From NCBI RefSeq assembly GCF_048403405.1, contig NZ_CP183129.1: a DNA stretch of 64,000 nt, one strand, 5' to 3'. Under the pieces are notes generated by a model. The model worked only from the letters and a program-made list of their open reading frames with translations, searched no databases and had not been told where the DNA came from. The translations under genes were made by a program, and so were the position numbers. The DNA comes from Escherichia coli (lineage in GTDB: Bacteria > Pseudomonadota > Gammaproteobacteria > Enterobacterales > Enterobacteriaceae). Below, in pieces: positions 39,766 through 40,062 of the stretch (position 1 is its first letter; every line of letters starts with the position of its first letter).

Positions 39766-39790
39766 TCAAGGGTGAAGGAAAGTGATTTTT

Positions 39791-39848
39791 TGGGGCATGC
39801 ATGGGGCAAAAATATTTGTTGTGGGGCATTTTGGGGCATGATTGGGAC
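39791..39848 (+). repeat. Four direct TGGGGCA(T) repeats near prophage right end (candidate integrase arm-type sites)
   Basis: Copies at 39791, 39802, 39822, 39832; about 120-170 bp from junction. Confidence 0.35.
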
Positions 39849-39951
39849 ACTTTGTTACATATGAACTTTGCCGATTTTTATATGACATGGAAATACAACG
39901 CTTTGATTCTTCTAAATAAAAAACATGCTCTTGGGCGTTCTTTAGTGATTT

Positions 39952-40062
39952 TTAAAAATTCCGTATCACGCAGTTAAAGTGGCGGGCATACTCTTCAAGG
40001 CTGGTGATCCCCAACCGCACCCATTTAGGATGCGACCATTGCGGCAGACCGATGTAAATCAT
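39952..40062 (-). pseudogene. yecE: yecE 5' fragment (first 32 codons then prophage-derived sequence)
   Basis: [32 protein letters not shown] matches the YecE N-terminus as recalled, then diverges to IRNF-stop at ~39966. Confidence 0.8.

Follow-up and report, generated by a model that had tools for sequence, protein, structure and literature searches.

The window analysed here, a stretch of Escherichia coli DNA 64 kb (64,000 nucleotides) in length, contains the tail-fibre end of a prophage and the host chromosome to the right of it (Table 1). The prophage genes in this part are a tail fibre gene (34681–37707), a gene for tail-fibre assembly, a minus-strand methyltransferase gene, a second, partial assembly gene and, last, a dinI-like gene. 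A noncoding stretch (39705–39966) lies between the dinI-like gene and a 5′ fragment of yecE, and the fragment is followed by the host genes yecD, aspS and nudB. The fragment is part of a minus-strand ORF at 39952–40062 that matches K-12-type YecE over 32 codons, with the match ending at 39967.

Several features of the prophage are of separate interest. The methyltransferase-like gene (38346–39014, minus strand, 222 aa) and the partial assembly gene (39071–39340, plus strand), which is a truncated duplicate of the C-terminus of the tail-fibre assembly gene, are both situated between the tail genes and dinI, and this region looks like a moron or recombination-scar region at the prophage end. The dinI-like gene has a promoter-like site on the minus strand with −35- and −10-like elements (39769–39740, from a promoter scan), and two LexA-box-like elements of the form CTGT-N8-ACAG, at 39720–39735 and 39748–39763, overlap it; this pattern is present four times in the window (0.66 expected), and the gene is probably an SOS-regulated prophage moron. 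There is no intrinsic-terminator-like structure in 39300–40100, and a sib-like retroregulator is thus not supported in this interval. In the replication region, the segment 8383–8503 contains three 7-mer direct repeats (AAATCTG, TCAAAAT and CCGTCAG), each with three copies within 45 bp. These fall in an ORF at 8065–9006 (plus strand; a helix-turn-helix protein in the RefSeq annotation) and are probably origin iterons.

Table 1. Features at the right-hand prophage end, in window coordinates; offsets are from the first base of the att core.
Feature	Coordinates	Strand	Offset	Basis or remark
dinI-like gene, last prophage gene, 82 aa	39456..39704	-		PHROG 189 DinI, E 5.7e-31
Candidate arm-type site 1, TGGGGCAT	39791..39798	+	−176	−176/−175 also in phiP27, AVS0151 and CharmingMan
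Candidate arm-type site 2, TGGGGCA	39802..39808	+	−165	distal pair with site 1, 11-bp spacing
Candidate arm-type site 3, TGGGGCAT	39822..39829	+	−145	equivalent at −143 in PPyecE_EH1910; degenerate in phiP27
Candidate arm-type site 4, TGGGGCAT	39832..39839	+	−135	first of proximal pair
Candidate arm-type site 5, TGGGACA (degenerate)	39843..39849	+	−124	second of proximal pair
Candidate IHF site, CAACGCTTTGATT (reverse complement of WATCAANNNNTTR)	39896..39908	-	−71	strict consensus; between arm sites and core
Inner P-arm block, GCTCYTGGRCGWTMTTY...GATTTTTAAA	39927..39958	+		alignment of six att regions
att core, attR copy, CACGCAGTTAA (crossover within)	39967..39977	+		limits of host homology on both sides; phiP27 features
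yecE 5′ fragment, codons 1–32, left at attR	39967..40062	-		YecE match, megablast
yecD, flanking host chromosome	40059..40640	-		ORF list, megablast

The att core and the two ends of the prophage

The limits of the core were defined from both sides. A megablast search with window positions 39400–40400 against 5,426 complete E. coli genomes showed that, in genomes with an uninterrupted yecE, host homology from the right starts at window position 39967 (query base 568), and in the reciprocal search with the left junction it stops at the last A of the core (...CAGTTAA). Host and phage thus have in common an 11 bp core, CACGCAGTTAA, and attB, attL and attR share CAC(G/A)CAGTTAA, as can be seen in attB of MC1061 (...ccctcCACGCAGTTAAagtggcggg...), attR of the window (...ccgtatCACGCAGTTAAagtggcggg...) and attL of E. 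coli ECO_2_R (...ccctcCACACAGTTAAcatgacggg...). The identical 11-mer is recorded as the attL and attR misc_features of phage phiP27 (AJ298298). Read by eye for imperfect inverted core-type sites around a short overlap, attB may be divided as CCCTCCAC-GCAGTTAAA-GTGGCGGG. The original prediction, made from the window alone, had proposed a prophage-host junction within yecE with the YecE frame matching for 32 codons down to about 39967, and the alignments agree with it on both points. It had also proposed alignment to an uninterrupted yecE as the way to define the core, and such genomes do define it; the core itself had been placed near 39960–39970, but the true core is a few bases further to the right.

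The left end lies outside the window and is visible in ECO_2_R (NZ_CP071002), which is 100% identical to window positions 1–6000 and has its left junction ~2.6 kb upstream of the point corresponding to the window start. There, yecN is followed by the 3′ portion of yecE, the core (CACACAGTTAA), int and xis, and the P′ arm is overlapped by the 3′ end of int; the matching left junction and the integrase are thus found upstream, as had been anticipated. The same attL junction is present in 325 of the 5,426 complete E. coli genomes (~6%). An intact yecE elsewhere in the genome with no matching left junction would have told against the assignment; instead attL exists, and the 3′ part of yecE has a median of one copy and a maximum of two per genome. 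The prophage is ~42.5 kb (42,575 bp in phiP27) and has a small terminase of the P27 type of family. It carries no annotated stx gene, with none between Q and the lysis genes. A phiP27-type prophage thus occupies E. coli yecE, with its right-hand end at this locus, and the phage would have entered at about codons 29–32 of the gene by site-specific recombination. The insertion site, the core and the phage type are already known and the junction itself is routine; yecE, which the original prediction had named as an integration site of lambdoid and Stx phages, is described as such (PMC8065619, PMC8112680).

We note two further points about attL. The fourth base of the core is polymorphic: of seven IMG/VR lysogens whose Int identity is 95% or more, four have A and three have G, two RefSeq genomes also have A, and attB and attR of the window have G (the set comprises loci L003, L001, L018, L026–L028, L072, L074 and L089). 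The Int-based IMG/VR scan that served this comparison returned near-identical integrases alone (95–100%), most of them on contigs that end at the int stop codon, and was uninformative about diversity. The polymorphism fits either a position in the strand-exchange region with a mismatch between phage and host or the existence of phage variants. The second point is the fate of the host gene. In ECO_2_R, yecE at attL has lost ~28 N-terminal residues together with its promoter, but int lies upstream of it on the same strand. RefSeq annotates there a 256-aa DUF72 (yecE′) protein (L003 10688–11458) with a non-ATG start in phage DNA and an overlap with the 3′ end of int, and the phage P′ side imitates yecE for a few codons (RHVNCVEGN, compared with the native RHFNCVEGN).

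Direct repeats in both arms and their conservation

Window positions 39791–39966, to the left of the core, would form the P arm of the phage att site and contain a set of TGGGGCA repeats, all on the plus strand. The four direct TGGGGCA(T) repeats of the original prediction are all present, starting at 39791, 39802, 39822 and 39832, but a degenerate fifth copy, TGGGACA at 39843–39849, had been missed; the distance given for them was 120–170 bp inside the prophage, and the four starts are 135–176 bp from the first core base and the fifth copy 124 bp from it. The start-to-start spacings are 11, 20, 10 and 11 bp, so that all copies face roughly the same side of the helix. Over the whole window the heptamer shows no enrichment (11 matches; 10.5 expected), and what is unusual is the clustering: nowhere else in the 64 kb does any 7-mer have four or more non-overlapping copies on one strand within 60 bp, and a first-order Markov model gave any such cluster in just one of 300 simulated windows. 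A chance origin is ruled out by these simulations together with the comparative data.

Two more copies are present in the P′ arm, in the same orientation as those in the P arm and within the last codons of int (…VPMMPH…): TGGGGCAT at +75 and TGGGACAT at +86. The arrangement recurs in related phages (Table 2). PhiR42_1 (Int 60% identical), in which the core was not located, has one pair in each arm, ~207 bp apart compared with 210 bp here, and P13363 (Int 69%) has four P sites arranged as pair-gap-pair and two P′ sites, the distance between the arms being shorter by one helical turn. The motif is kept in six other att regions whose integrases are 60–96% identical, including those of wrbA-type Stx2 and Klebsiella phages, and its orientation, its 11-bp phasing and its distance from the core are also kept while the surrounding arm DNA has diverged. 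The proximal pair is invariant in the alignment of six att regions, with its first site (site 4) at −132 to −135, or at −129 in the wrbA-type P13363, which has a different core; the counterparts of site 5 are TGGGRCA at −121 to −124. The distal pair (sites 1 and 2) is more variable. It is missing from the ST540 and RothC arms, and PPyecE_EH1910 has three contiguous proximal sites instead, so the pair is dispensable in these relatives. Because several of the phages without it look functional, the distal pair (−176/−165) is probably auxiliary or specific to one direction of recombination.

Table 2. TGGGRCA-type sites in this prophage and in relatives; Int identity is to the integrase of this prophage and offsets are counted from the first core base.
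Phage or prophage	Form	Int identity	P-arm sites	P′-arm sites
This prophage			−176, −165, −145, −135, −124	+75, +86
phiP27		95.6%	−176, −165, −135, −124	+75, +86
CharmingMan	intact attP	85%	−175, −164, −134, −123	+75, +86
Klebsiella phage RothC	intact attP	79%	−132, −121	+75, +86
ST540 prophage	attR only		−132, −121	
PPyecE_EH1910		76%	−143, −132, −121	+74, +85

The relatives also bear on two other explanations of the repeats. For the dinI-like gene, whose promoter has the two LexA-box-like elements, the cluster begins 22 bp upstream of the −35-like hexamer, and the repeats could be upstream regulatory elements of this SOS-controlled promoter. We find this very improbable: the distance that stays constant is that to the att core and not to dinI, the ST540 and RothC arms have no adjacent dinI and still have the pair at −132/−121, and copies are also found within the int coding region at attL. 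The second explanation is that the repeats are a by-product of coding. A 58-aa ORF (39801–39977) runs through the region, in which Trp-Gly codons would give rise to TGGGGC; its homologue is annotated in the phiP27 record as hypothetical protein L58, and the L58-type reading frame is open in the window, AVS0151 and phiP27. However, there is no ORF of at least 30 aa over the region in CharmingMan (with its intact attP), RothC or ST540, in all of which the DNA motifs are kept, and the changes in pair-to-pair spacing are not multiples of three. The stop codon of the ORF is moreover inside the att core, so the ORF exists in the integrated form only, and we regard an origin of the repeats in this ORF as scarcely credible.

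The integrase itself is a 437-aa tyrosine integrase, 95.6% identical to phiP27 Int over 436 aa. It has a Pfam Arm-DNA-bind_2 match over residues 7–70 (E 2.4e-23) with Phage_integrase downstream, and an AF2 model of residues 1–100 (pLDDT 83.7) contains three strands and a helix. A phmmer search against the PDB matched the core-binding and catalytic parts of Int, with no match for the N-terminal domain. The arm-binding domain is of the PF12167 (DUF3596) type, as in the IntBPP-1 subgroup of tyrosine recombinases (PMC8138268). Among the compared phages the N-terminal domain is the best-conserved segment of Int (77–94% identity), and the C-terminal tail, encoded over the P′ sites, is only 36–65% identical, although the sites themselves are kept at the nucleotide level. 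The excisionase (78 aa; PHROG 539) is 47–85% identical.

We also examined 120 IMG/VR stretches containing the exact pair TGGGGCATNNNTGGGGCA. In 83 of them the C-terminus of an Int homologue is no more than 120 bp from the pair; this homologue is 50–99% identical in all but one (82 of 83), and in the rows checked the pair is antisense to int; many or most of the remaining 37 look like P arms, at the opposite end of the contig. Since the sample was chosen by the motif itself, it provides evidence of the association with int alone and not of motif conservation. The motif does not reach distant relatives: near int of Pseudomonas phage JBD68 (Int 30% identical) there are no TGGGGCA repeats, nor any other 7-mer present at least three times. 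A separate observation from the same collection is that the same heptamer pair, TGGGGCATTTTTGGGGCA, immediately follows the stop codon of a 380-aa integrase that is unrelated and Gram-positive-looking (loci L094, L097, L104, L109, L110, L115, L152 and L095), which has Pfam Phage_integrase and Phage_int_SAM_3 matches and no arm-domain match; one of the contigs has a second pair at its other end. A different family of integrases may thus have acquired the same arm motif.

The TGGGGCA repeats beside the core are very probably arm sites of the phage integrase, because there are copies in the other arm, the sites are conserved in relatives, Int has an arm-binding domain, and the motif is associated with int in IMG/VR. 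The original prediction had considered them as integrase arm-type sites from their position, and the pair in the opposite arm, the conservation and the domain all support it. An alternative is that the repeats are bound by the excisionase (a recombination directionality factor) or another accessory protein rather than by the N-terminal domain of Int. It is well established that lambda Xis sites are also direct repeats in the P arm, which the 10–11 bp phasing here resembles, and as Xis is homologous across the compared phages, conservation alone cannot tell Int binding from Xis binding. We nonetheless think it unlikely. The repeats are not confined to the P arm, there being a pair at fixed positions (+75/+86) in the P′ arm, inside int, and under the lambda paradigm excisionase sites are not known from P′; the N-terminal domain of Int is better conserved than Xis; and a separate conserved block is available for Xis or a host factor. 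This block, GCTCTTGGGCGTTCTTTAGTGATTTTTAAAA (39927–39958), is present in all six aligned P arms, including that of the wrbA-type Stx2 phage with a different core. The homology of the ST540 prophage to the window begins at 39927, and a further 11 P arms from IMG/VR have GCTCnTGGnCG downstream of the pair. The block is possibly a site for Xis or a host factor.

Candidate sites for IHF are also present in both arms. The strict consensus has two matches in the whole 64-kb window, one of them at 39896–39908, which is tentatively a candidate IHF site. It is found in this phage only and is not kept in the P arms of the relatives. A match to WATCARNNNNTTR at +30 in the P′ arm is kept in three of four P′ arms (this phage, CharmingMan and RothC).

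Proposed organization of the attachment site and comparison with known systems

Taking these comparisons of sequence together, we consider it highly probable that this locus is the attR core of a ~42.5-kb phiP27-like prophage in which the five TGGGRCA(T) repeats of the P arm and the pair in the P′ arm are arm sites for the N-terminal domain of Int. In the lysogen the five-site P arm would stay at attR and the P′ pair at attL, inside int. The repeats would be bound by the small N-terminal domain of the tyrosine integrase and, by analogy with lambda, each Int molecule would have this domain on an arm site and its core-binding and catalytic domains on a core site. DNA-bending proteins would fold the arms back onto the core, with the candidate IHF sites at −71 and +30, and the 78-aa excisionase would tilt the assembly towards excision. 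We infer both the binding of Int to the repeats and the division into sites for integration and for excision.

The general plan is that of lambda, with its heterobivalent Int and an attP in which the arm-type sites (P1, P2 and P′1–P′3) are roughly 120–180 bp from the core on one side and 55–90 bp on the other, with a motif of about CAGTCACTAT. The likeness includes short direct repeats that are unrelated to the core and present in both arms, an Int N-terminal domain of three strands and a helix, candidate IHF-like sites between arm sites and core, and an int 3′ end that runs into the P′ arm. It differs in the motif, which is TGGGRCAT here, and in the arm domain of Int, which belongs here to another Pfam family (Arm-DNA-bind_2, PF12167); lambda has two P and three P′ sites, whereas five P and two P′ sites are predicted here.

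Among the closest known systems is phiP27 (a Stx2e phage; AJ298298 / NC_003356), which is also in yecE and has the same core, the same layout of arm repeats, a P27-family small terminase and about the same genome size. The prophage here differs in having no annotated stx and in the presence of the dinI-like gene and the methyltransferase beside attR. At −145 this prophage has a perfect TGGGGCAT and phiP27 a degenerate copy, and both P′ copies of phiP27 are TGGGACAT. The O145:H28 intR-type PPyecE prophages (Stx1a/Stx2a phages; Nakamura et al. 2021, PMC8112680) occupy the same site in yecE, with dinI beside attR and an att of 21 bp that contains the same core, the identity of attP and attB being longer than here. 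PPyecE differs in its Int and in having three contiguous P sites and no distal pair. In P13363, a 933W/O104:H4-type Stx2 phage in wrbA, Int is 68.7% identical (77% in the N-terminal domain), and the TGGGGCA pair-gap-pair of the P arm, the pair inside the 3′ end of int and the inner P-arm block are all present; the differences are in the core, GTTTCAAYATGT in wrbA, and in the P-to-P′ distance of 199 bp compared with 210 bp here.

In the searchable literature there is no description of arm-type sites for the integrases of yecE, wrbA or Stx phages, or of the heptamer. Arm sites as such are an expected feature of this integrase class, and the modest addition here is their predicted assignment for a phiP27/933W-like clade, as 11-bp-phased TGGGRCAT pairs at about −176/−165, −135/−124 and +75/+86. 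This clade includes clinically important Stx phages. A full attP architecture helps in designing minimal att sites for integration vectors and in the precise annotation of prophage ends, which the motif pair could mark to the base, and it also helps with the question of interference between co-resident prophages by way of arm sites that they have in common. The motif is common to integrases that target yecE (two Int types), wrbA (EDL933/O104:H4-type Stx2 phages), and Klebsiella and other sites. It is possible, although we hold it to be doubtful, that TGGGRCAT is a common arm code of an enterobacterial clade of PF12167-type integrases with different targets. If so, where prophages share a host, the integrase or excisionase of one could bind the arms of another and affect its excision or integration; for example, a Stx-negative phiP27-like prophage could modulate the mobility of a Stx phage, although functional cross-talk of this kind is speculation.
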